Made by a program: the position numbers and the translations under genes. 64,000 bases of DNA. It comes from Paecilomyces variotii (Eukaryota). Positions within the stretch are counted from its first letter, which is position 1. Each line of letters begins with the position of its first letter. Below, in pieces: positions 1 to 64,000 of this stretch. Location: assembly GCA_004022145.1 (NCBI GenBank), contig RCNU01000004.1, one strand, 5' to 3'. Below the pieces are notes generated by a model. That model had not been told where the DNA came from and searched no databases. It worked only from the letters and a program-made list of their open reading frames with translations.

Positions 1-2848
1 CTTCCCTGATGTCGGTCAAGGCGGCTGGCCTGGGTCCAATTTCGGAAACCAGTGCAACGGGCAGACATATACTAATGCTGATGGTGAAGCGACTCAGCTG
101 CTGTCCGGTTGTCAGCAGATTGCGGACGATATTCCCGTCTGTCAACAGGCTGGCAAGAAGGTCTTCATCTCTCTTGGAGGAGCTTATCCCGCAGACGGCC
201 AAATCATCGATAATGATGACTCTGCGCGCGATTTCGCCGACTTCCTCTGGGGCGCTTTCGGTCCAGAGACGGACGCCTGGGTGGCGCAGAATGGGCCCCG
301 TCCATTTGGTGATGCCGTGGTGGATGGTTTTGACTTTGATATCGAGCACAATGGACCCACTGGTATGCTCACACTCGATTGAACGATTGGGACTAGTTCT
401 GACTCTTCTTGAACAGGATATGCCGCTCTGGCTCGGCGCCTACGTGACAACTTTAGCGAGTTCCCATCGAAGCAATTCTATCTCTCTGCTGCGCCGCAGT
501 GCCTATCTCCCGATGCGCAGCTGTCTAATGCGATCCAGTTTGCCTCTTTCGATTTCATCTGGGTTCAATTCTACAACACTGATCCATGCTCTGCCCGTGC
601 CTGGGTGGATGGGGATGTGACTTCCGACTTCACGTTTGACGCATGGATTGCCGCCATCAAGCTCGGGGGCAACCCATCTGCTAAGTTGTTTATTGGTCTC
701 CCTGCCGATCCTACCCAAGCGTACTATGTTAGTCCAGATGAGGTTGAGACTCTGGTGGAGGAATACATGGGCAGATATCCCGAAAACTTCGGAGGAATCA
801 TGATCTGGGAGGCGACAGCTTCCGACGAGAACCAAATCGACGGTCGCAGCTACGCAGCCAACATGAAGAGCGTCTTACTCAAATATGCTCCTCCTGTGGC
901 GACTCCGACGCCCCCTGTCTCTTCTTCCGCCATTTCTTCTAGCAAGCCCACGCCTTCTGGCGCATCATCTGGACAGCTTACTTCCTCTGTCATTCCTTCC
1001 AGCAAGCCCACTCCTTCTGCGCAGTCTACTTTCTCTTCCATTGTTTCTGGCAAGCCTACTCCTTCTGGACAAGCTACTGCTTCCAGCAAGCCCACTCCCT
1101 CTAGCAAGCCTACTCCTTCTGGACAGGCTACTGCCTCTGGCAAGCCCACTCCCTCTGGACAGGCTACGCCCTCCAGCAAGCCTACTCCCTCCAGCAAGCC
1201 TACTCCCTCTGGCAAGCCTACTCCCTCTGGTCAGGCTACGCCCTCTAGCAAGCCTACTCCTTCTGGACAGGCTACTGCTTCCGGCAAGCCCACTCCGTCT
1301 GGTCAGGCTACGCCCTTTAGCAAGCCTACTCCCTCTGGCAAGCCTACTCCCTCCAGCAAGCCTACTCCCTCCGGCAAGCCTACTCCCTCTGGACAGGCTA
1401 CGCCCTCTAGTAAGCCTACTCCCTCTGGACAGGCTACTCCCTCCGGCAAGCCTACTCCCTCTGGACAGGCTACTATCTCTAGTAAGCCTAACCCCTCTGG
1501 ACAGTCTACTTCCTCTGCCATTCTTTCCGGCAAGCCTGCATCGTCCGGCAAGTCCACCCCCTCTGGACAAGCTACTCCTTCTGGAAAGCCTATTTCTTCT
1601 GGACAGGCCGTTTCTTCTGGCAAGCCTACTCCTTCTGGAAATCCTGCTTCCTCTGGTATTCCATATGGCAAGCCTACTCCTACTGGCACGCTCGTTTCTG
1701 GAAAGGCTACACCGTCTGGAAAGCCGGCTTCGACTGCCAGTATCATTTCGACCTCAAAATCAAGTTCGAGCGCCCCAGTCACTGTCTCTGGTCCTGCATT
1801 AAGCGTTGCGACCTCCGCAACACGCAGCAGCAGCGGAAGTGGCTTGTCGTTTTCTGGCTCAAGCTCGGTCGCTGCTCTTCCTTCGTTCTTCAGTGCTACT
1901 ATGTCCCACATCAGCCCGTCCGCCTCTGTCATCCGTTCCACAACTACCGGTCAGATGGATCCTTCTATAACCCCTAATGCTGGCGTCTCTTCTGCGGCAT
2001 CTGGATATACTTCTTCCAGCTCTGGACTTGCTACCATTACAACCGTTATCGTTACTTCGTATATCGACATCTGTCCTACCGGCTTCACCACGATTACGAC
2101 AACTTACACCACGTACTACTGCCCTGGAACGGTTTCCGCAACGACGACTCCTGCTGCTTTGCCTACCGGCTCGTCTAGCCAGACTACAACCCCGCAGCTT
2201 CCAGAAGGCTGGTCTACCACTGTTACCGTTTGCACACAGTGTGCTGCTACACCAACCACTGTGACTCTCACGAAGCCTCTTACTGCTACTAGTATCAGTG
2301 TTATAACAGCTACTGCAACTGAAGTTGCTTCTGCTAGCACCTCTGGCAACTCTGGCAGTACTGCTGTATCGGGAGAAGGCGCTACCTCTTCCAGTCAACT
2401 CCCCGGAAGTATTGCAACTGCTCTTCCGGCTGGCCCCTCTCAGCCTGCTCCCGTTGCAGGCTCCTCTGGCTCCGAAGGCGAGAATATCTCTTCCTCCAGC
2501 AGGGTTGTCACTGCCAGTGTTGTGCTGGCCAGTCCATCTGGAGTAGCTATCACACCTGGTCAGAGCGGTGCTGCAAATGAAGAGGTTGCCTCGACGGGGC
2601 CCGCCCTGACTACCGTCCCTGTTATCCCCGTGAAGGGCAGCAACATCCCTGTGCCAACTGGAACTGGCTCCCACCAGACTACTTTCTCTTTCAAGCCGTC
2701 CGTTCCTGTCTCTCGTGTCCCCGTTAGCCCCAGCAGCACCCAGGGCAGCGTCGCTCCCGTTTTCACCGGTGCTGCTGGTCGGGCGTCTGCGACAAGCTGG
2801 CTTGTTGCCATTCTTGCTGTAGCGGCCTCTGCGCTTTCTCTGATGTGA
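1..2848 (+). CDS. chiA: GPI-anchored class III (GH18) chitinase with long Ser/Thr/Pro-rich stalk; 5' end outside window
   Basis: Frame 2 from base 2 reads FPDVGQGGWPGSNFGNQC...KKVFISLGGA...RPFGDAVVDGFDFDIEH (GH18 DxxDxDxE motif). GT-AG intron 363-416 joins to GYAALA...LSAAPQC...FIWVQFYN...FGGIMIWEA. Then S/T/P repeats, Cys-bearing YIDICPTG and VTVCTQC motifs, and a hydrophobic C-terminal GPI signal. Confidence 0.93.
941..1722 (+). repeat. Coding minisatellite of 18-bp units (SKPTPS / GKPTPS / GQATPS)
   Basis: Repeated agcaagcctactccctct and ggacaggctacgccctct units are visible directly in the sequence and translation. Confidence 0.95.
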
Positions 2849-19139: not shown

Positions 19140-21993
19140 TCACATAGCATATCCAGCACCTCCGACCACAGAGGTTTGTGGAGCGTACCTACTACGTGCA
19201 GTCCGACCGGAACCACAACCCACGGTTCCGATATCTATGGATTTGATCTCCTTGCTCAATGCATCCATGCTTGGGCTGGCTCCCATGACTGGGTAATTTT
19301 GATTCATGGGCTGTGCCACTGGCACTTTGACAGGAATCGGTGGCCCGGTGCGAGTCGGTTCGTACAGTTTCGAGGCCGGGGTGGGCGAAGTTGAAATTCG
19401 ATAGTTCCGAGATGTGTCGTATGCGTTGGGAGAGCTGTAATTCCGCGCGTGACCGTAGCCTGCATAGTTCTCGCGTTCTCGAAGGACTTGATCACTGCGC
19501 GGAGATGTCCGCACGACGGAGTTATTGGTCGGGCTCGGCGTGGCGTATGTTACTGGCCGTTGTTTCTGAAGACGGTTGCGACTAGCCCTTTCAGTCGAAG
19601 AAGGGGATCCGCCTACCTCTATGATCTGTGGCTTTGAATGTGGGCGGCTGGCCACCATATCTCGCGAACTTCTGGTCGGTGTCGACGACTGCGGCGTGTG
19701 CTTGAAACGGACGACAACTTCTGGCTTCTTCGTCTTTCTTTCCGGCTCAGGAGCCCATGTGTCACTGGGCAAGTGATCCGAGGGGTCAATAACCTTGCCA
19801 TCGTCACCTATAATGGGTCCCAACTCATGGTCGTTACCAGCGGAGGCAGAATCTCTTCCCCCGTCAGGGCCCCCAAAGGCTACCACGGCGGTTCTGACCT
19901 TTGACGATCTTCCGGCGTTGGGATTCAATGCATCATACGAGTCAGGAGAGAATGGTACTCCCGATAGACCTCGCTCCTCCACTGGCGGTGGTCTAGGGCT
20001 CACTGACTTCCTCTTAGGGACACCACGGGTATTGGGGCTCACGGACCTGGGCTTACCAGTTCGGGTGTCCGCATAAGACGATCCTGGCTCAGCCGTAATA
20101 ACAGCATTCGAACGCTGGACGCCGATAGGAGCCTGGTACGATGGTTGTTCAACCATTTGGGTGACAGGCGCCTCTGGAAGATGCATTTCATTGTGGTTCA
20201 AGTGGGCCCGTTTCTCGTAGATCGCCCTGTCTGACTCTGCCTCAGCAATCACTGGGTCATATCCCGCAACCAGACTTGGCGGTACATCCGGGCCATTGGC
20301 AGGCAGATCCTGCAAACGTCCCTGCGGGTGCTGGCTATACGACGTCCGGGAGGACATGGACATAGCGGAAGTTGCCATGTCGAAGTCTGTGGAAGGAGAT
20401 GCTGAACGAACAAGGTCGGGTGTGTATGCCTGATAAGGGACAGCGGGAAGGTCCTGGGCCTGACTCGTCTGCGCGAAGGCCGATCTGTGCACCGGCGGTG
20501 GCGGTGGAGGGCCATCCTCATCCTCATCTTCGACACGGGGCTGCATAGACGCATATTCAGGATGATAATCCTCACGGCTCGCTGCCTTACGCAACTGACT
20601 CTCGCGATAGACGTCCATCTTCGCTGGCAGTGCGGCCGTTTCACTGTGATGACGAAGCTCTGCGGCACCAGGTACCGTCCGGGCATAAGTGAACTCTGGC
20701 GGGGGTGCATCGTACACCACAGTTGCTTGAACGGGGTTCGCAGCAGCTATCGACCGTTGTTGTCCATATTGTGGCTGCTCTGGATGGTGACGAGGTTGTT
20801 CTGTTGCGACTGGTGCATGGCGAGGGGGATTCGTCTCATAGCCCCTTGAAAAGACAACTTCTCCTTCTGGAGTCCGGTAATACCTGTCTTCCGCTTGTTG
20901 CTGACGGCGGTCTGGCTGATGGACAACTTCGTATGTTCTCTCAGGCGGAGCTTGTTGGTAGTGTACTTCTACCGGTTGTTCCTGATAGATCTGTCGTGGT
21001 TCATAGTGATACTTCTGGGAGCGGCTCTTCCCATGGCGACCATTGACCTGGACGTACTCTCTCTGGAGATCATCTGATGTGTGATATCCTCGTGACGTAC
21101 GAGGAACGGAGGAGGAGCTTTGTGGAGGGGCCGCAAAGAGGGGCTCGGGCACAGCAGCGTGCCTTGACGTGGGCCGGACGTATTCTGAAGTCACTGGAGG
21201 AGCCGTGTGTGCATGCTCGTGCATCACCGGACGCGTGGGTGGGATATGAGCATACGCGGATGCAGAATGGGCATTATCCGCGGTAGCAGGCCGTGCAGCA
21301 GGCGCTCCGGTCGGGTCGATAGGCAGAGGCCTCCTCTTGAGCGGCTTGGGCTCTCGTGGACCGGAGAGAGAGGTTGCTGCGGGCACTGGAGCGGGGGCAG
21401 CTGACTTTGGAGCGACCTTCTCGACTCCCTTCCTTCTCTCGATCACTGCCTCGTCCTCTGGTCGAGTGTCGTAGTAGGTCATCTCGATTCTCACTTCGCC
21501 CGCATACTTGCCTTTGAACTGCAGCTGATGCCATTGGTCACTCTGGCCCCCGCCGGGGATAATGAGACTCTTGAGATCAATCCAGGTCTCACCAATCAAG
21601 TCAGTCTTCTTATCATCATTGAAGACTGACACCTTCAGCTGATAATAATCCGGAGACTCATGGACGGTGAACCGCAGCTCCTGGTCCCTGCGGGATGGGT
21701 CAGCGTTGAACTGTGAAAGAATCGGTCACGAATGACGCTGGGATGGATCCATACCATCTGGGAGTCTGGCCACCGCGCATATCTGTCTCTGTCTTCTTTG
21801 CTTCCTTACCCAGACGGGCAGCACAATAGGGATTCTGCTTGCCCATGGTCTTTCGATTGGGCAGGTTCTTGGCCCGATCCACGACGGCGACCAGCGTGCC
21901 AATGGAGGGGCCGTCGACGGACATGTCTGCATAGATGCCAGCGGTATGGCCATTGATGGCATTGATAGGCAACTTGGGGATCTTGGAGACCAT
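19140..21993 (-). CDS. C2-domain cytokinesis ingression protein (Inn1/Fic1-like) with Pro-rich tail
   Basis: Exon 1 GTLVAVVDRAKNLPNRKTMGKQNPYCAARLGKEAKKTETDMRGGQTPRW; intron 21688-21754; exon 2 DQELRF...VFNDDKKTDLIGE...GKYAGEVRIEMTYYD followed by a PxxP-rich region. Confidence 0.85.
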
Positions 21994-39462: not shown

Positions 39463-40974
39463 ATGTCTTCGGAAAAGAATATCAGGCCGCAGACCAGGTC
39501 AAAACTTCTCTCTCTTCCTTGTGAGTTAAGGCTGGTGATATACAACTACGTTTTCACCAGCCAAGAAGTCTGCGATATAAAACGTGTTCCCATCCGCATA
39601 TGGTGCGAACCACAGCATGAATGGCTGGAATACACAAAGTCCTGGCGTCCGGGATTCTGGCAACATAAATGCCAGCATCGAGCATGTTGGATGCAAGCCG
39701 CGGGGATCCTGGAGTCGGACATCTACTACGCCTCGAGTCCGATCACCGCGTCGACGCATTTCCCCTGTCCCGGTTCTCTGTCACCCTGCCCTCTGAATCT
39801 GGCTCTTCTTCAGACCTGTCGGACTATATACTACGAGGCTCGCACAATGCCTTATGAACTCAATAGGTTCCACACGTGGGAGCTAAGCAGCTTTTCAAAT
39901 TTCACTTATTGTTTGAAGAGTTGGCAGATCCGGTCCATTAGCCATCTGTCGATTGATCTCAGTGATTCCTTCGGCGGTAATACGGCTGCGTGGAACGAGT
40001 CGCTCGCCGTTATTGCGCGCGCTTTCGTGGGTCTGAAGACCCTCTCGATCACGATATGGCTTGGCTCCTTCCATCAAGCCTTCAGACCGAATTTCTGGTC
40101 GGGGGGTCTGCTGGACCTTGATCGTTTGCAACTTCAGGGTCTTCGCCTTGTGATATATGGAAGACCAGGACAGCCGGTTTTTGACTACTCCGCAGGAACG
40201 GGCGTGGAGCTTCCAGTTGAGCATTTCAATACACACCTTCGCCAGTGTGGAACTGGTCTTGAGGGAAGCCGTTTGATAATGGAGGACTGCGACCAAATCT
40301 CCTACAAGGGAACGGTATCAAAAACTGCTTCTACCCAGCAATCTGAGATCAAGTTCAGCGCAGCGCAGAAATGTCTGGAGCATATCTACGCAGACTGGGC
40401 ACACAAGAGATGCGATGCCATTTTACCTGTTGGGTTCCATTTCGATTTCTATCCGCTCTATATGCGGGATATGCTTGAGAGGCTGCCTGAGAGCGTGGGA
40501 AATGCTGAAATTCAAGGACACAATCTATTCACGCGGAAGTATGCATTTTGTAATGCGTACGATAAATCCGATGGAGGACGGCATCCGATTATAGGATATC
40601 AGTTCCATGATGACACGCCTCCTGAGGAAATAAACAGGGGCGTCGAAATGTTCCTGGAAGCTCGGAAACGGCTGAAGAGGTCCCATGCAAAATGGGCACC
40701 AGTATATCAGGCTGAAGCTCAGAAAATACTTCAGGAACGCAGAGCTCGACGAATGTCTCGTGGCTCGCAGCTGGAACAGAAACCCTGTCGAGATAAGATG
40801 GGTTATTCTCTGCTAGAACAAGATGGGGAGCCGGGAGAATGGAGACATCGCCTGGTTGCGGAGACAGTCGCTCCATTAATTGAAACTTTTCCGTGGGAAG
40901 TACCAAAACTCGCGAGGGTAGAGACTGATATCTGCATAGACTGTCCTAAGAAAGGACCTGGTCATCCCCAGTAG
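39463..40974 (+). CDS. Fungal hypothetical protein with N-terminal F-box-like motif
   Basis: SKLLSLPCELRLVIYNYVF and LALLQTCRTIYYEA...YELNRF motifs; start taken at MSSEKN. Confidence 0.75.
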   Translation: MSSEKNIRPQTRSKLLSLPCELRLVIYNYVFTSQEVCDIKRVPIRIWCEPQHEWLEYTKSWRPGFWQHKCQHRACWMQAAGILESDIYYASSPITASTHFPCPGSLSPCPLNLALLQTCRTIYYEARTMPYELNRFHTWELSSFSNFTYCLKSWQIRSISHLSIDLSDSFGGNTAAWNESLAVIARAFVGLKTLSITIWLGSFHQAFRPNFWSGGLLDLDRLQLQGLRLVIYGRPGQPVFDYSAGTGVELPVEHFNTHLRQCGTGLEGSRLIMEDCDQISYKGTVSKTASTQQSEIKFSAAQKCLEHIYADWAHKRCDAILPVGFHFDFYPLYMRDMLERLPESVGNAEIQGHNLFTRKYAFCNAYDKSDGGRHPIIGYQFHDDTPPEEINRGVEMFLEARKRLKRSHAKWAPVYQAEAQKILQERRARRMSRGSQLEQKPCRDKMGYSLLEQDGEPGEWRHRLVAETVAPLIETFPWEVPKLARVETDICIDCPKKGPGHPQ

Positions 40975-41234
40975 ATCGAAGTCTGAGTCCACATTTCGAG
41001 ATAATTTGCAAGAACAGAATTCCTGAATAGAGTATCTCAGCAGTGACAGTGTCGTTTAGAGGGGCATTTACCCTGTTTGGATAAACACATCTTGGCAATG
41101 ATTGTGATTGTATTTGTATTTTGACCTGGGCACGTCTGCGATAGGCGATGTTGTACGTCAAATATTGAATATGACTGTATATAGTAGTTATGTCTGAATG
41201 ATAAACACGTTCCGTTCCCTCTAGTAGTTAATAA

Positions 41235-41895
41235 TCATTGAGCGCTAGCGAAATGTTTACAATATACTGGGTTCAAAAGTTTTCTGTTTTTTCTCCACTT
41301 TTTTCTAATCTCTCTGATTGGTCTATTCTGAGTCACCGCCACGTGACCTTTGATTTAATTGGTTTGTTCTGAGTCACCGCCACGTGATATAACTATAAAC
41401 TGCTACTTATTACCGCCTTCCCTTTTAGGAAATCAAAATAACTCTTTTTAACCTCCTATATAGGTTCGCGTCTATATTAATTAATCTACACCCTTTACAG
41501 TCCTCCCCCCCTGCTTTTTATCGCCTATTTAGCTGTTATAAAAGCTTGCTTTAAAAGCATTTTCTTTTATCTAAATACTGGCTTCTTATTGGTCTTCTTA
41601 TTAGTCTGTCTGAAATATCGACTATATTAGCTAAATCCCTCCTACCTATCCCCCTTCTACCTACTTATCCTATATAGACTTCGGCTTCTTATACTATCTA
41701 TCTATTTAGATAGTTCTTTACAATATTTATCATCCACAGTTACTACACTAAAAGAACCTGATAAATTATTTGATTAAGCAATCAACCTATCTGCTAGGCT
41801 TTGCCAGCGCGCCAGCGCGTCAGCGCCAGCAGCCAGCTTGGTCACTACGCTCAATGATTATTTGCTACGGCCCCTCCTAGCCGTAGCGCACCTAG
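41235..41895 (+). mobile_element. Non-autonomous Helitron-like element, copy A (661 bp)
   Basis: A|TC 5' end; hairpin GCTACGGC-N8-GCCGTAGC; 3' CACCTAG|T; no TSD; collinear with inverted copy B over its whole length. Confidence 0.85.
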
Positions 41896-41973
41896 TAATT
41901 GTCCCCAAGCGTACTACTGTACTCCGTACATAGGCAATGATATATGTGCCATGTGGAGATCCCTAGTATATGG

Positions 41974-42262
41974 TAGGGGTGGTGAATTTCAGACATTTTC
42001 TTTTTTATTACTGAAATACTGAAATTCAACCCTTTTTTTTCGTTTCGAAATTCAAAACGCACAGACCATAAGTGGGGTGCGCTAAATACAGATTAGGAAA
42101 TTAAGCTAAGAGAATAACCAATAGTAGGTACGATACTATTAATAAGTAAAAGCGCAAAATTTCGGTCACGTGCCTATTTGAAATTCAAAAATTTTTCGTG
42201 AAATTAAAATCTTTTTTATTACTGAAATTCATGACATTTTGAATTTCAAATCGCCATCCCTA
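41974..42262. mobile_element. hAT-family MITE (289 bp) with 8-bp TSD
   Basis: TIRs TAGGGGTGGTGA / TCGCCATCCCTA (10/12, Ac-like TAGGG start); TSD GTATATGG at 41966-41973 and 42263-42270; repeated internal GAAATT(C) motifs. Confidence 0.88.
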
Positions 42263-42313
42263 GTATATGGTAACCTTAAGGCTGATCTAGAATAGAATAG
42301 TGAATAATTGATA

Positions 42314-42919
42314 CTAGGTGCGCTACGGCTAAGAGGGGCCGTAGCAAATAATCATTGAGCGTAGTGACCAAGCTGGCTGTTCTGACTAAGCTGGCTGCTG
42401 GCGCTGACGCGCTGGCGCGCTGGCAAAGCCTGGCAGGTAGGTTGATTGCTTACCTAGTTCTTTTAGTGTAGTAACTGTGGATGATAAATATTGTAAAGAA
42501 CTACCTAATAGATGAAGCTAGCTAGTAATTGCTAGATAGTATGAGAAGCCGAAGTCTATATAGGATAGGTAGGCAGAAGGGGGATAGGTAGGAGGGATTT
42601 AGCTGATATAGTCGATATTTCAGACGGACTAATAAGAAGCCAGTATTTAGATAGAAGAAAATGCTCTAAAAGCGAGCTTTAATAGGCAAAAAAAAAGCAG
42701 GGGGTAAGGACTGCAAAGGGTGTAAATTAATTAAAGCAGACGCGAACCTATATAGAAGGTTAGGAGGAGTTATTTTGATTTCTCAAATTAGAAGGCGGTA
42801 ATACCTAGCAGTTTAGAGTCACATGCGGGTGAAAACGAATCGACCAATCAGAGAGACCCGGAAAAAGTGGAGCACTTTTGAACCCAGTATATTGTAAACA
42901 TTTCGCTAGCGCTCAATGA
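42314..42919 (-). mobile_element. Non-autonomous Helitron-like element, copy B (606 bp)
   Basis: On the minus strand A|TCATTGAGCGCTAGCG...GCTACGGC-N8-GCCGTAGC-GCACCTAG|T; homology to copy A stops essentially at these termini. Confidence 0.85.
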
Positions 42920-43334
42920 TCATCGCAGTGGCCGTCCTATGTATTTTACAGTCAGGGCTGAAAATCCTTCACGGAAGGCGCGGGCCGGAAGTAATTTATT
43001 AATAATTAGCAGCGCCTTAGCGAGTGCAAATATGGATTCTTTCTGTTTTTGCTCCATAACGCCGATAATGATCTTCGCTAGTGCCGAGGTTACTCCTTCG
43101 GAGGTGGATTTTTCCTGTTCGCGCCGTGATGGACGGGGCCTTTGGGCCTTTCCGCTATGTGCCGCAGGTTCCCGAACTGCCGGTTTCATTTTTTCTATTT
43201 TTGACGTACTCTACTCCTTTCGAACAATGAGATCGCAAACGCCAAGGGGTTCAATGCGTTGATCTTGTGCCTTGTGCCTTGTATCCTGTGTCTTCTGTCT
43301 TCTCTCAGGGAAAACCTCCCTGCGGTAGTGCAAC

Positions 43335-45317
43335 ATGACGGTTGTGGCGTCTCAGCAGCTCCCGGTCTTGCTCCGGGTGCGTTCAAGCACTATTTTCATT
43401 GTTACCGCTGTTGCTATTGCGGTTTTTACGGTATGATTTTGACGCAGCAGGAAGAACCCCAGAACTAGTTAGTTTCCAGAAAAGCTAATAGTTGCATAGG
43501 ACACCTTTCTCTATGGGCAAGTTCACTTGCAATATCCCAATTGAGTGCAGCAAACTGACCGGCAGAAAGTCTCTTGATTCCTGTCTTTCCCTCGGCCCTC
43601 CAGGAAAGATGCTCTGTGCCCGAATCGAAAGGTGAGACTTCACAAGCCTTTCCAATAACGGCGTCTGAACTGACTTGATATAGTGCAAATGTACACGTCC
43701 TATCTAGTAGGACTAACTGGTGCCGGTAATCTCATTGGAGCTTGTATGTTTGATGCGATCATTTCAGTTGCTGTTGTGTCGTATGTACTGACAGACTATT
43801 TGAAAGTCTTTTTTGGCTGGCTCGCAGATCACACCAGCAACAGACGGTTCTCTCTCTTGCTAAGCCTTTCGGTCTTGACCGTGGCCACAGTTCTCATATG
43901 GATTGCGCATAACGTTGCTATACTATATGCAGGCCGATTCCTGCAAGGACTAGCCTCGGCTGCAGTATGGAGTGTAGGCCTTGCACTTCTCGTTGACACT
44001 GTAGGGAAAAGGGAGATACCTGTCGTCATGGGCTATGTCAACGTAGCCTTCAGCGCCGGCACAGTCACAGGGCCCTTCGTTGGAGGTATTGTGTATTCCC
44101 TCGCAGGATATGATGCGACCTTGGGACTCGCTGTCGGCCTTCTTGGTTTGGACATAATCCTACGGCTTTTGATCGTCGAGAAACGCGACCTACAACAAAT
44201 CCTAGAATCTTCCGCGGTTGATGAAGCGAACGAGGACGTCGTGCAGCCTTTGCTAGGGACACCCACTGCATCTACGAACAATAGACATGCGCAGACATCG
44301 TATTCTTCCCCGCTGCCTGCCACGCAGGAGAATCAGGAGGATGAGGGAACTGAGGTTGAGGTTGCGTATAAGACACTGATAAACTCGAAACGTCTGGTCG
44401 TACTCTTGGTTTGCGCGATAGTTCAAGCAATAACAATGAGCTCGTTTGAGGTCACCCTGCCGCTACATCTTCGTGATATCTTCAACTATGATCCGAAGGG
44501 AGCAGGTCTGGCATTTATACCTCTAATGGTCCCGGCTTTCTTCTCCCCCGCGATAGGTCAGTATTATCCCCCCTCCCCCCCCTTTTTTTTTTCGCAATAT
44601 ATGTCTAAACGTGACTATCATAGGGTACGTCTGCGATCGTGTTGGCAATAAGATTGTTGCATTTTTGGGGTATATTCTCTGCGCCGTGGCACTCGTTCTC
44701 CTGCGGCTGCCTACACACAAAGATACCCTGAACGAAGTTGGAATGTTCGGTGACCTTTTGATGATCGGCACCGCCATGTGCATGACTATGACGCCGGTCT
44801 TGACGGAGATCTTTGTTGCAGTGGAAGATTTGGAAGAGCAAAAGCCGGGACGCTTTGGACCTTATGGAGCTTATGCGCAGGCGGTAAGTATAGCTATAGC
44901 TACTCGCCAGAATATCGTGATCGTTCGGGAGACTGACCCTACTTGAACAGTATGGCCTCTTCGAGTTTGTCTATTCAGCCGGTATTCTCGGTGGTCCAAT
45001 CATGGGTACGTGTGCCCAAACCTCACCTAAGGGACTGCATGCTAATTTCCCCATAGCCGGATGGTTGAGGACCAGCTTCTCATGGAATGCGCTAACGCTT
45101 GTCCTTGGTACGCACTTTTCCTTAATTGACCGTTATCTACAGTAAAGTTATCTTTCTAACCTAGGACTCCGTTCGTTATAGGAATTCTGAGTTTTGCTAC
45201 CAGCTTCCTAATGGTACGTTATGTCATAGCTCCTACAACAGAGCACCTGCTTACTGCTGATAGATACCCACGAAATGGTCTGCCATCGATGATCATGATG
45301 AGGAAGAAACCAGATAA
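43335..45317 (+). CDS. MFS transporter, SLC18/vesicular amine transporter-like (10 exons)
   Basis: Spliced reading MTVVASQQ...RSSTIFIVTAVAIAVFT|DTFLYG|LLIPVFPSALQER...|VQMYTS...|FFGWLAD...GRFLQG...GLALLVDTVG...PGRFGPYGAYAQA|YGLF...; nine introns, one GC-AG (43517-43569). Confidence 0.85.
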
Positions 45318-61280: not shown

Positions 61281-61463
61281 TTCCATAGTATCGAGTGGGC
61301 GGGCCAGCATACCTCCCAGCTATCCAAATACCCTCCACATCTGCCCTTCATATCTTCAGGGCAAGACTGACTTGACTTATTCATACCTTCCCAGAAACCT
61401 ATAACCCGTTATGTTTCTCATGAATTGAATTCATTTTACCATAAAGTAACTAATTACTGTGTT

Positions 61464-64000
61464 ATGGCTTCCCCGTCTACGCCGCGCTCGACGCGCTCCG
61501 CGTCTCCAGCGAACGTCGCCTCTAATGAAGGCTCTCCTGCGATTTTGACGCCGGGAAGGAAAATTAAGGCTATGCTTGCAGCCTTTGATGATAGCGATTC
61601 CGATTATGACAATGGAAAATCTACAATGCGGACATCCCTTCCAAAACTGAACTTGAATACAGAGACGCCGCGACGCAACCAGGTATTGGACAAAGAGGAG
61701 GATGATGATGATGATGATGATGAAGAGGAGGTTATCATTAAACCCAAGGGCCGCATGGCTGCTCGGATGCAAGTGCAAGAGCAGACAGGTAATGAGACGA
61801 CATCGAAGGATGGAGATGAGACGGCATACCAGCGAGTAGCACGAAACTTGCAAGAGAACACAGAGACGAGAGAAGTCTCAGAAGAAAACGAGGCCATATC
61901 GTCCGACGATGATCTTCCCACAGCCGGCCCTAGGAGAGGACTACGGAAAGCAGCTCAGAACTCGGAAATCGACGATCAGGCACGATCGCCTTCCCCTGCT
62001 CGATCCTTTTCTCCTCTCTTTGTATCCTCACCGGCTAAAGGACAGGAAGAATCAGAGAATGAGGATGCAGCTATCGATGCAGGAGAGAATGGGAAGTCTA
62101 AATCAAATAGCCGCTTCTTGGCGCTGGTCGCTCAGAAGCGAAAGGAGAGAGAAGAGAAGGAGCGCCTCGAAGCTGAGAAAAAAGCAGCTAGGCTGGAGAA
62201 GATGAAGCAGTTCAGTTCTGATATTTTATCAGGCGAGGACAGCGACGATGGCACCGGACAGCGATTGTCCCAGAAACCTCGTCCTGCTCGCAAAGCTAGC
62301 AAAAAGGCCCTGGAGGAGATGAACCGAGAGACGCAGAGAATCAGCAGAAATATGCAGCTTGCACACGAAGCACGAACTAAAAAGAAGATCACCAAAGAGA
62401 GCTTCTTTGCTCGATTCAACTTCATGCAGCCGCAGGGCCAAGATGAGTCCACCCACGCACAGGATAACTCTTCCACGACCGCTGGCTCTCAGCATTCTTC
62501 CGACGTCGAAGCGCAGAAGGACAAGACAACTCCGCCAACATCGCCAGCCCGAGCACCGTCGCCAGATAAACCGGCTGATGCCGCAACTTCTGAGCAGGCG
62601 AATCAGTCTCAGCTGGCGGAACGGGAGGTTACTAATTATGAAGCAGAACTCCCTTCTGTGGAAGAACTCCTTACGCAGCCACTCCCATCCCAGGAGCCCA
62701 CTCTTATTGCACAGGCTATGGTCCAGGCAGAAGAAAGTAAGCCAGAGCCTACAAAGAAGGATACAAAACCACTCCGACGAGCCCTTACAAAGCCTCCTGT
62801 TCGTGTGCAGTTATCTCGACAATTTGTAGCCGAACACCAGAAGGATGACTCCGACGATGACCTTGAAGTAATTACGTCACCTGCAAAGACTCGCCGCATT
62901 GCTGTCTTTGAAAACCTGCCGTCGAAACAGGCCCAAGAATCGGCCTCTATGCTTAAACTCAAGGCCCTGGCTCACTTGACCTCACCCACTCGTCGGAGTA
63001 CGTCAATGTCCCCAGCGGAGCTGTCCGCTGTCCTGCGTATCCAGGCACGACAGCAGGCTGCAAAGGAGAGGGCTGAGAGGATCGAAGAGCTGCGAGCGAA
63101 GGGAATCCATATCGAGACAGCTGAGGAACGTGCCGCAATGGATGCTGAGGTTGAAGATCTGGTGGAAAAGGCAAGAAAGGAAGCGGATGAAATCAGAAAA
63201 CAAGAGCGGGAGGCATCAAAGGCCGGCAAGCCCAAAACTATCGAACTTGATAGCGAAGAGGACGAAGACTACGAATTTTCAGACGAAGATGATGATGGGG
63301 AAGCGGAAGACGAGGAAGAGGAAGATGCAGATGATGAAAATCTTGTTGAAAATGAAGCTGGAGAAGCCGGGGAATCCGAGGAGTCTGAAGAAGAACCAAT
63401 GGAGGAGGATGACTCGGACGTTGAAATGGAAGCTACCGTCTCAACCCGAAGAAAGCGTCCTCTGAGAGTCGTCAGTGATGATGAAGATGAAGAGCAAGAA
63501 CCGGCGACTCCTGCGAGAACCGTCACACAACGTCCAGAATCCATCAAGAAACCTACTTTCCCGGACATGCCAAATTCCAACGACTTCACCATGGGTCTAA
63601 GTCAAGCATTTGCAGCTACATTAGGCGGTAGCCAGTCTGAGAATCAACAGGAGTCGCCTGCAATCCTCGGCAGTCTCCCAGACCCTGCTGGAGCTTCAGC
63701 TGGAGTCCAGGAAACGGATCCTGAAGTACTCGTGAAGGACAGTCAGGGACGAAGAGAATCTGTTGACATTCTTCACGGCTTGACCCAATCTCAAACTCGC
63801 ATTTCGGAATCTCCTGGTCCGAAGATATTCTCGCAATATTCTCAGATACCAGATCCGACCCAAGATGAAGGATTTGTGATGTCACCATTCGACCAGTCTA
63901 AACGCTTTGTTGAACCCCCAGTGTCGACTGTTGAGACAGTTCTCCTACCTCGGGATGAATCGCCAGTCGCAAAGAAAAGCAGGGTTCTACGACGTGGACA
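61464..64000 (+). CDS. MRC1: Replication checkpoint mediator Mrc1/claspin-like protein; 3' end outside window
   Basis: Frame starts MASPSTPR...LTPGRKIKAMLAAFDDSD and includes RKASKKALEEMNRETQRISRNMQLAHEARTKKKITK, acidic tracts and SQ/TQ sites; runs off the window, so absent from the ORF track. Confidence 0.85.
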   Translation, partial: MASPSTPRSTRSASPANVASNEGSPAILTPGRKIKAMLAAFDDSDSDYDNGKSTMRTSLPKLNLNTETPRRNQVLDKEEDDDDDDDEEEVIIKPKGRMAARMQVQEQTGNETTSKDGDETAYQRVARNLQENTETREVSEENEAISSDDDLPTAGPRRGLRKAAQNSEIDDQARSPSPARSFSPLFVSSPAKGQEESENEDAAIDAGENGKSKSNSRFLALVAQKRKEREEKERLEAEKKAARLEKMKQFSSDILSGEDSDDGTGQRLSQKPRPARKASKKALEEMNRETQRISRNMQLAHEARTKKKITKESFFARFNFMQPQGQDESTHAQDNSSTTAGSQHSSDVEAQKDKTTPPTSPARAPSPDKPADAATSEQANQSQLAEREVTNYEAELPSVEELLTQPLPSQEPTLIAQAMVQAEESKPEPTKKDTKPLRRALTKPPVRVQLSRQFVAEHQKDDSDDDLEVITSPAKTRRIAVFENLPSKQAQESASMLKLKALAHLTSPTRRSTSMSPAELSAVLRIQARQQAAKERAERIEELRAKGIHIETAEERAAMDAEVEDLVEKARKEADEIRKQEREASKAGKPKTIELDSEEDEDYEFSDEDDDGEAEDEEEEDADDENLVENEAGEAGESEESEEEPMEEDDSDVEMEATVSTRRKRPLRVVSDDEDEEQEPATPARTVTQRPESIKKPTFPDMPNSNDFTMGLSQAFAATLGGSQSENQQESPAILGSLPDPAGASAGVQETDPEVLVKDSQGRRESVDILHGLTQSQTRISESPGPKIFSQYSQIPDPTQDEGFVMSPFDQSKRFVEPPVSTVETVLLPRDESPVAKKSRVLRRG

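Follow-up and report, generated by a model that had tools for sequence, protein, structure and literature searches.

Canonical Helitrons (Helitron1/HLE1) insert between A and T (written A^T here) without a target site duplication (TSD), start with 5' TC, end with 3' CTAG, carry a GC hairpin near the 3' end and have no terminal inverted repeats (TIRs) (PMC5148889, PMC3627910, PMC11417382, PMC4778049). What marks Helitron2 (HLE2) elements is an inverted repeat that is short and asymmetric, together with a 5' hairpin and insertion at T^T or T^C (PMC3627910, PMC11417382); HELIANO adds DUF6570 as a marker of the HLE2 RepHel (PMC11417382). These and all other published elements are described here as they appear in the available parts of the cited papers. 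We analysed a 1.7-kb stretch from the fungus Paecilomyces variotii (positions 41235–42919 of the window, i.e. of the whole 64-kb stretch of contig RCNU01000004.1 under analysis), in which two short Helitron-like copies stand in opposite orientation and carry end features of both groups.

Mosaic ends are known in principle from two described systems. FoHeli1 and FoHeli2 of Fusarium oxysporum start with TC, carry a ~12-bp asymmetric terminal inverted repeat (ATIR), the 3' arm of which lies 38–51 bp from the 3' end, and use a TNAT^A target (PMC5148889). The proto-Helentron of Phytophthora infestans combines a transposase of the Helentron/HLE2 clade with a 3' CTAG and A^T insertion without a TSD (PMC4067079), and re-analysis of this element (HelenPi572) with HELIANO gave ~12-nt terminal inverted repeats in 16 of 17 copies (PMC11417382). 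At the P. variotii locus, we conclude with a probability of roughly 0.8 that three transposons inserted independently into ~120 bp of fungal intergenic DNA and make up the 1.7-kb stretch as a nest: two diverged copies of one non-autonomous Helitron-like (rolling-circle) family, arranged tail to tail, with a hAT-like miniature inverted-repeat transposable element (MITE) between them.

Empty sites at the locus

The two inverted arms of the stretch occupy 41235–41895 (plus strand, 661 bp) and 42314–42919 (minus strand, 606 bp) and lie ~0.42 kb apart. A preliminary description had placed two ~0.6-kb copies at exactly these positions, each starting with TC after an A and ending with CTAG before a T, without a TSD, and had named empty sites in other strains among the checks, with copies found only as a complete 1.7-kb unit with a TSD, or boundaries away from TC and CTAG, counting against this reading. 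Comparison with public sequencing runs confirmed the boundaries of both copies to the base, as the joints of the empty sites coincided with the termini, and the arms were absent singly at TC and CTAG rather than together as a 1.7-kb unit with a TSD.

Four public runs (X17, X20, X5 and X15) were compared with the window over 40400–43900, of which X17, X20 and X5 come from three different studies. Many public runs contain about half of the words sampled from the locus, as expected if a run has the flanks but not the insert. A single contig spans the whole locus in three of the four runs (37.5 kb in X17, 28.0 kb in X20 and 5.6 kb in X5), and each of these contigs skips the same three segments: 41235–41895 (661 nt, ends TC..AG, 1 ambiguous letter), 41959–42255 (297 nt, 17 ambiguous letters) and 42313–42918 (606 nt, equal to 42314–42919 given 1 ambiguous letter). 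Exactly 115 letters remain between the outer flanks in each spanning contig, corresponding to 63 and 57 nt of target minus a 5-nt deletion at 42289, and in their flanks the empty alleles depart from the window at 25–31 of 1816 letters (1.4–1.7%). The fourth run, X15, showed no skip and gave pieces of the filled allele with 0 differences; it may be the source of the window itself and therefore adds nothing independent.

Three separate skips within one contig indicate three independent insertions and not one 1.7-kb unit. Both Helitron-like copies (2/2) were skipped exactly at TC and CTAG, and a target duplication was absent at both insertions. The empty sites read ...AATAA^TAATTG and ...GATGA^TATCAA, with insertion between A and T in both cases, and the 1-nt ambiguity of the joints also permits T^A. 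The two arms thus do not belong to a single unit, and a third insertion, unrelated to them, lies in the 0.4 kb that separates them. Two inverted arms of ~0.6 kb around a 0.4-kb spacer do have the outline of a foldback or long-TIR element (Mutator-like or MITE) that moved as a whole, but this reading is refuted by the three skips, as the 63 and 57 bp of target between them are kept in single contigs of three runs; moreover, no direct repeat flanks the 1.7-kb unit, and the arms are only 90% alike, with seven indels. We consider it extremely improbable. The same holds for the proposal that one insertion gave rise to both arms by local inverted duplication, which would fit two copies of one family lying within 1.1 kb of each other but is contradicted by the empty sites: each arm ends at its own TC and CTAG, has different flanks on both sides and is precisely skipped by itself, and the arms differ by 10% substitutions and seven indels, compared to a flank divergence of 1.4–1.7% from strains that lack both copies.

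Structure and class of the Helitron-like family

In element orientation, both copies begin with TCATTGAGCG, preceded by A, as part of a longer shared start (TCATTGAGCGCTAGCG), and both end with GCACCTAG, followed by T. The layout of the 3' region is likewise common to the two copies and reads CGCTCAATGA-TTATTT-GCTACGGC-(8 nt)-GCCGTAGC-GCACCTAG. When the arms were aligned with MAFFT, 512 of 569 aligned columns were identical (90%), and seven indels of 10–46 bp were present. Identity was complete over the first 45 nt (45/45) and nearly so over the last 98 alignment columns (79 of 80 aligned), while interior windows of 50 columns ranged from 67 to 100%. The longest open frames are 49 aa in the left copy and 47 aa in the right, and both elements are non-coding. 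No further copies were found in the window by blastn, and terminal motifs allowed up to three mismatches matched these two sites only.

The left copy also contains a tandem duplication with a 41-bp period at 41317–41387, which is not found in the right copy and appears as a 46-column gap in the alignment. The 41-bp unit includes ATTGG, TGAGTCA and CACGTG, which we take to resemble CCAAT-box, AP-1/Gcn4-type and E-box sites, respectively; going by this resemblance, the left copy may carry promoter-like sequence.

The family is mobile, and many further copies of it exist in this organism. In X17, X20 and X5, the runs without these two copies, 95, 67 and 84 contig pieces, respectively, matched the stretch, mostly on its repeats, and at least 16 contig ends among those listed leave the 3' end into unlike flanks. 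Given that the two copies differ from each other by 10% and seven indels, as set against the flank divergence given above, they descend from source elements that had already diverged. Although diverged, these source elements kept the same ends, i.e. the termini are constrained, and identical ends with a divergent interior are the pattern expected if only the ends are needed in cis. As a separate observation, position 41722 is joined to 42490 on the opposite strand in X20 and X5 contigs; the 3' half of the element seems to be duplicated internally, in inverted orientation, in some copies at other loci. The pattern of the 3' hairpin and tail had 0 matches in metagenome, genome and viral contig collections, and the 5' 21-mer had 0 matches in viral and genome contig collections. 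Eight metagenome loci (L001–L008) that were retrieved with a relaxed 3' pattern were all rejected as chance matches (8/8) in unrelated GC-rich sequence, five of them being one and the same stretch.

Two further features in the preliminary description, a GC hairpin of 8 bp shortly before the 3' end and, just upstream of it, the element's own 5' terminus in inverted copy, were present in both copies, the hairpin with a folding energy of -9.3 kcal/mol and the inverted copy as an exact match of 10 nt. The hairpin, formed by GCTACGGC and GCCGTAGC around 8 nt, ends 8 nt before the 3' terminus in both copies. Of 200 shuffled sequences each, 3 (left) and 1 (right) folded as well, and the left hairpin was present in both the minimum free energy (MFE) and the centroid folds of the whole element. 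Upstream of the hairpin, the first 10 nt recur as their exact reverse complement, CGCTCAATGA, in 2/2 copies; among 20000 shuffles of the interior, this 10-mer occurred 8 times anywhere and once within the last 100 nt. When the first 25 nt and the last 60 nt were folded together as two pieces of DNA, 10 bp, a 1-nt bulge and 3 more bp formed beside an intact hairpin, and the ddG of this 5'/3' pairing (-11.3 kcal/mol) was equalled by 2 of 300 shuffled 5' ends. In X20, one diverged copy retains CGCTCAATGA, with different bases upstream and a spacer that is 3 nt shorter, which is a hint of constraint on the repeat. Another X20 copy, observed in its 3' part only, reads CGCGCAATGA at the 3' arm.

Beside the left copy, the host flank at 41224–41234 (GTAGTTAATAA) matches the reverse complement of the spacer at 41858–41868 (GTAGCAAATAA) at 9 of 11 positions, such that the repeat seems to extend into the flank; for the right copy, the flank matches the reverse complement of the spacer at only 3/11. 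The match at the left flank is probably AT-rich chance, the rival thought being that the target was chosen by pairing.

When the family was compared with the canonical class, TC/CTRR termini, a 3' subterminal hairpin and A^T insertion were all found, but so was a 10-nt exact inverted copy of the 5' end, ending 38 nt before the 3' terminus. Canonical Helitrons such as Helraiser/Helibat1 and HELPO1/2 of Pleurotus share with it TC, CTAG, a GC hairpin, A^T insertion and the lack of a duplication, and also have short non-autonomous derivatives with only the ends in common; they differ in that the hairpin lies 10–12 nt from the terminus, with no inverted repeat in the descriptions available, whereas here the distance is 8 nt, the loop has 8 nt and the 10-nt repeat is exact (PMC4778049, PMC4289320). 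One explanation is that this is an ordinary canonical (HLE1) non-autonomous family, in which the 10-nt inverted match is a by-product or a quirk of the family without a role in transposition. This would account for TC, CTAG, the GC hairpin, A^T and the missing TSD, i.e. for all canonical marks apart from the absence of terminal inverted repeats, and it is consistent with the existence of canonical Helitrons in fungi (HELPO1/2; PMC4289320), with the lack of a convincing 5' hairpin and with a full-length fold that has no long-range pairing. However, canonical Helitrons are defined, in the sources available, as having no terminal inverted repeats, and the repeat here is exact, starts from base 1 and occupies the Helitron2 position, a placement reached by chance in 1 of 20000 shuffles; the diverged X20 copy also keeps the 3' arm where the adjoining sequence differs. 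We regard this explanation as possible but doubtful.

Of the Helitron2/HLE2 marks, the short asymmetric inverted repeat was present, with its 3' arm 6 nt before the hairpin, but the 5' hairpin was not credible and the T^T/T^C target was not used (A^T or T^A, 2/2). Helitron2 as defined by Bao and Jurka in 2013 shares with this family a repeat of 8–15 bp with its 5' arm at the very end and its 3' arm upstream of the hairpin, as well as a T start; the 3' arm lies ~20–30 nt from the end there and 38 nt here, and the family differs further in its unsupported 5' hairpin, A^T insertion and CTAG (PMC3627910). FoHeli1/2 and their relatives in Chaetomium globosum share a Pezizomycotina host, a start with TC and an ATIR, and their TNAT^A target is compatible with both empty sites here, given the 1-nt ambiguity of the joints (PMC5148889). 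After a 1-nt shift, the target reads TAAT^A and TGAT^A (2/2 sites, with few complete sites to draw on). The C. globosum Helitrons are described without a 5' hairpin, as here, and the same paper reports insertions a few bp from another copy; FoHeli1/2 differ in ending with ATATTTT, a terminus not matched by either copy (both end GCACCTAG), and in having the 3' repeat itself within the hairpin, the comparison being one of descriptions and not of end sequences (PMC5148889). Helentrons are marked by an AP-endonuclease domain in the transposase and by a TT target with T runs at the boundaries; neither such a target nor terminal T runs were present here. The proto-Helentron differs in its oomycete host, its length of ~14 kb, its 5' TT start and the stem-loop at its 5' end (PMC4067079, PMC11417382).

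The family lacks a defining feature of each subgroup and is best called a non-autonomous Helitron-like element with mosaic ends, combining canonical TC/CTAG/A^T with a Helitron2-type asymmetric inverted repeat. The structural interpretation in the preliminary description, a non-autonomous rolling-circle family with hybrid ends, is supported, while such a hybrid is less unprecedented than had been implied, given FoHeli1/2 and the proto-Helentron. The combination of a TC start and an ATIR, followed by a 3' hairpin, CTAG and an A^T target, was not found in the available parts of the published Helitron descriptions compared, and a full-text literature search with the terminal sequence strings matched no paper. 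The HelitronScanner paper is said to report, perhaps, short inverted repeats at the termini of plant Helitrons, and if so, less is new here.

We give a little less than an even chance to the explanation that the partner transposase belongs to the HLE2 lineage (Helitron2, FoHeli1/2-like), such that the repeat would be ancestral and functional, and TC/CTAG/A^T a variant of that lineage's ends. The repeat sits where the Helitron2 definition puts it, at 0–2 bp from the end for the 5' arm and just before the 3' hairpin for the 3' arm (PMC3627910), and the 38-nt distance of the 3' arm is the value for FoHeli2 (PMC5148889). Both empty sites fit the TNAT^A of FoHeli1/2 and C. globosum after a 1-nt shift (PMC5148889), and other copies of the family keep TAA before TC (two X17 contigs) and at least TA after CTAG (16/16 contig ends among those listed). 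In addition, most RepHel proteins of Pezizomycotina in the FoHeli study group with Helitron2, the C. globosum relatives likewise have no 5' hairpin in their description (PMC5148889), and the proto-Helentron indicates that an HLE2-type transposase is compatible with CTAG and A^T ends (PMC4067079). What speaks against an HLE2 partner is the 3' end, which is CTAG and not ATTTT, and the target, which is not T^T or T^C; the target motif itself comes from two sites and the listed read rows only, and no transposase was seen.

Several results weigh against our account of the nest and its family. The empty alleles could reflect three precise losses rather than three gains, although losses are unlikely. 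The read-derived figures come from contigs and from the listed rows only, and they give no copy number. The MFE fold of the full 661-nt strand had no long-range 5'/3' pairing, for which reason we relied on the two-piece fold with shuffled controls. No compensatory change between the repeat arms was found in the two copies, as their termini are identical and hence give no covariation signal. The 5' hairpin, a Helitron2 mark, folded at -2.5 kcal/mol (z -0.2) and was equalled by 70 of 200 shuffles. Finally, an autonomous RepHel element with the same ends was not found in the 64-kb window or, by end patterns, in public metagenome, genome and viral contigs.

The MITE and the surrounding locus

The coordinates of all features are collected in Table 1. 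Between the two Helitron-like copies, the second skip marks a MITE that is unrelated to them. Its terminal inverted repeats, TAGGGGTGGTGA and TAGGGATGGCGA, match at 10 of 12 positions, and its 8-bp target duplication, GTATATGG, is found at 41966–41973 and 42263–42270; an 8-bp target duplication and short TIRs are the marks of hAT-type MITEs. Copies of the MITE at other loci match 41974–42262 exactly, for example on a 7.5-kb X20 contig. The MITE end TAGGG would fit YARNG, which we take to be the hAT end consensus. Within the target, the 7 nt to the left of the duplication (ATCCCTA) equal the last 7 nt of the MITE, and the 2 nt to the right (TA) equal its first 2. As a consequence of these end-like bases beside the MITE, the filled allele has a 17-nt direct repeat and the joint in the empty allele is 17-fold ambiguous. 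The end-like bases may reflect chance, a preference for end-like targets or an older footprint.

Table 1. Features of the nested insertions in the window; copies are named left and right as they lie on the strand given.
Feature	Position	Strand	Support
Left copy of the non-autonomous Helitron-like family (661 bp); ends 5'-TC...CTAG-3', A^T site, no TSD	41235..41895	+	skipped in empty alleles
Inverted-repeat 5' arm, left copy, TCATTGAGCG, from element base 1	41235..41244	+	pairs with 41848-41857 in two-strand DNA fold
Inverted-repeat 3' subterminal arm, left copy, CGCTCAATGA	41848..41857	+	6 nt upstream of hairpin, 38 nt from 3' end
3' hairpin, left copy: GC-rich 8-bp stem, 8-nt loop, then GCACCTAG	41864..41887	+	fold -9.3 kcal/mol, z -2.36
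Original target DNA, left copy to MITE	41896..41973	.	kept in empty-site contigs of X17, X20, X5
AT-rich 289-bp hAT-like MITE, unrelated to Helitron-like copies	41974..42262	.	skipped in X17, X20, X5; TIRs and TSD
Original target DNA, MITE to right copy	42263..42313	.	kept in empty-site contigs of X17, X20, X5
Right copy of the non-autonomous Helitron-like family (606 bp), inverted relative to the left; A^T site, no TSD	42314..42919	-	skipped in empty alleles
3' hairpin, right copy: identical stem, one loop difference	42322..42345	-	fold -9.3 kcal/mol, z -2.84
Inverted-repeat 3' subterminal arm, right copy	42352..42361	-	ends 38 nt from 3' end
Inverted-repeat 5' arm, right copy	42910..42919	-	inverted-repeat listing, motif scan

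All three insertions lie between a DUF7730 gene (open reading frame (ORF) end at 40974) and an MFS transporter gene (ORF from 43689), i.e. in the intergenic region 40975–43688, and the fact that ~120 bp received three of them suggests a favoured landing zone. The nest is a strain polymorphism and could affect regulation of the adjoining genes. The tail-to-tail copies, at 90% identity, form an inverted repeat of ~0.6 kb, which, if read through by transcription, could yield a long hairpin RNA directed at all members of the family. With Pfam, neither a Rep nor a Pif1-like domain was detected in the window, and the genes identified were all ordinary fungal ones. Three long ORFs in the window, 605–2848 (+), 19140–21632 (-) and 61425–63998 (+), encoding 747, 830 and 858 aa, respectively, matched no Pfam family even at an E value of 0.1. 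Rfam gave no match on 40500–43700 at E values up to 1.

Proposed transposition and its meaning

We infer a role of the inverted repeat in transposition, within a scheme modelled on Helraiser and related work. In Helraiser, the left end is needed, the 3' hairpin acts as an end signal and TC-CTAG circles form (PMC4778049). For the P. variotii family, a RepHel encoded elsewhere would nick at the 5' TC and peel off the TC...CTAG strand, the hairpin and CTAG would be read as a stop, the ends would be joined into a circle, and the circle would integrate at T-N-A^T-A. The 5' end of the displaced single strand may pair with the subterminal repeat, as Bao and Jurka hypothesised for the ATIR of Helitron2 (PMC3627910). 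Such pairing would bring the transposase-bound 5' end to ~40 nt from the 3' cleavage site, beside the hairpin.

A more far-reaching interpretation, which we hold only tentatively and consider unlikely, is that the family is a living intermediate between two Helitron end architectures, i.e. that it was recently mobile and combines canonical TC/CTAG/A^T chemistry with functional pairing of the 5' end with the 3' subterminal repeat. If this were true and the partner RepHel belonged to HLE1, then ATIR-guided pairing of ends would not be confined to HLE2; if the partner belonged to HLE2, then CTAG and A^T ends would extend beyond HLE1. In both cases, a compact 0.6-kb substrate with clean empty sites would have its end structure uncoupled from the transposase clade, and it would lend itself to testing how RepHel locates the 3' end.

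What the locus adds is a new variant of end structure and not a new mechanism, and outside transposon biology it is ordinary. Tools and classifications for Helitron annotation set TC/CTRR/A^T ends against short inverted-repeat/T^T ends as two alternatives, and a family with both, whose mobility is verified by empty sites exact to the base, shows that these rules do not partition cleanly, such that mosaic-ended elements can be misfiled or missed. As a small and simple element, the family would also be well suited to the question of whether a rolling-circle transposase is helped in defining the end of the transposed strand when the 5' end pairs with a subterminal 3' repeat.

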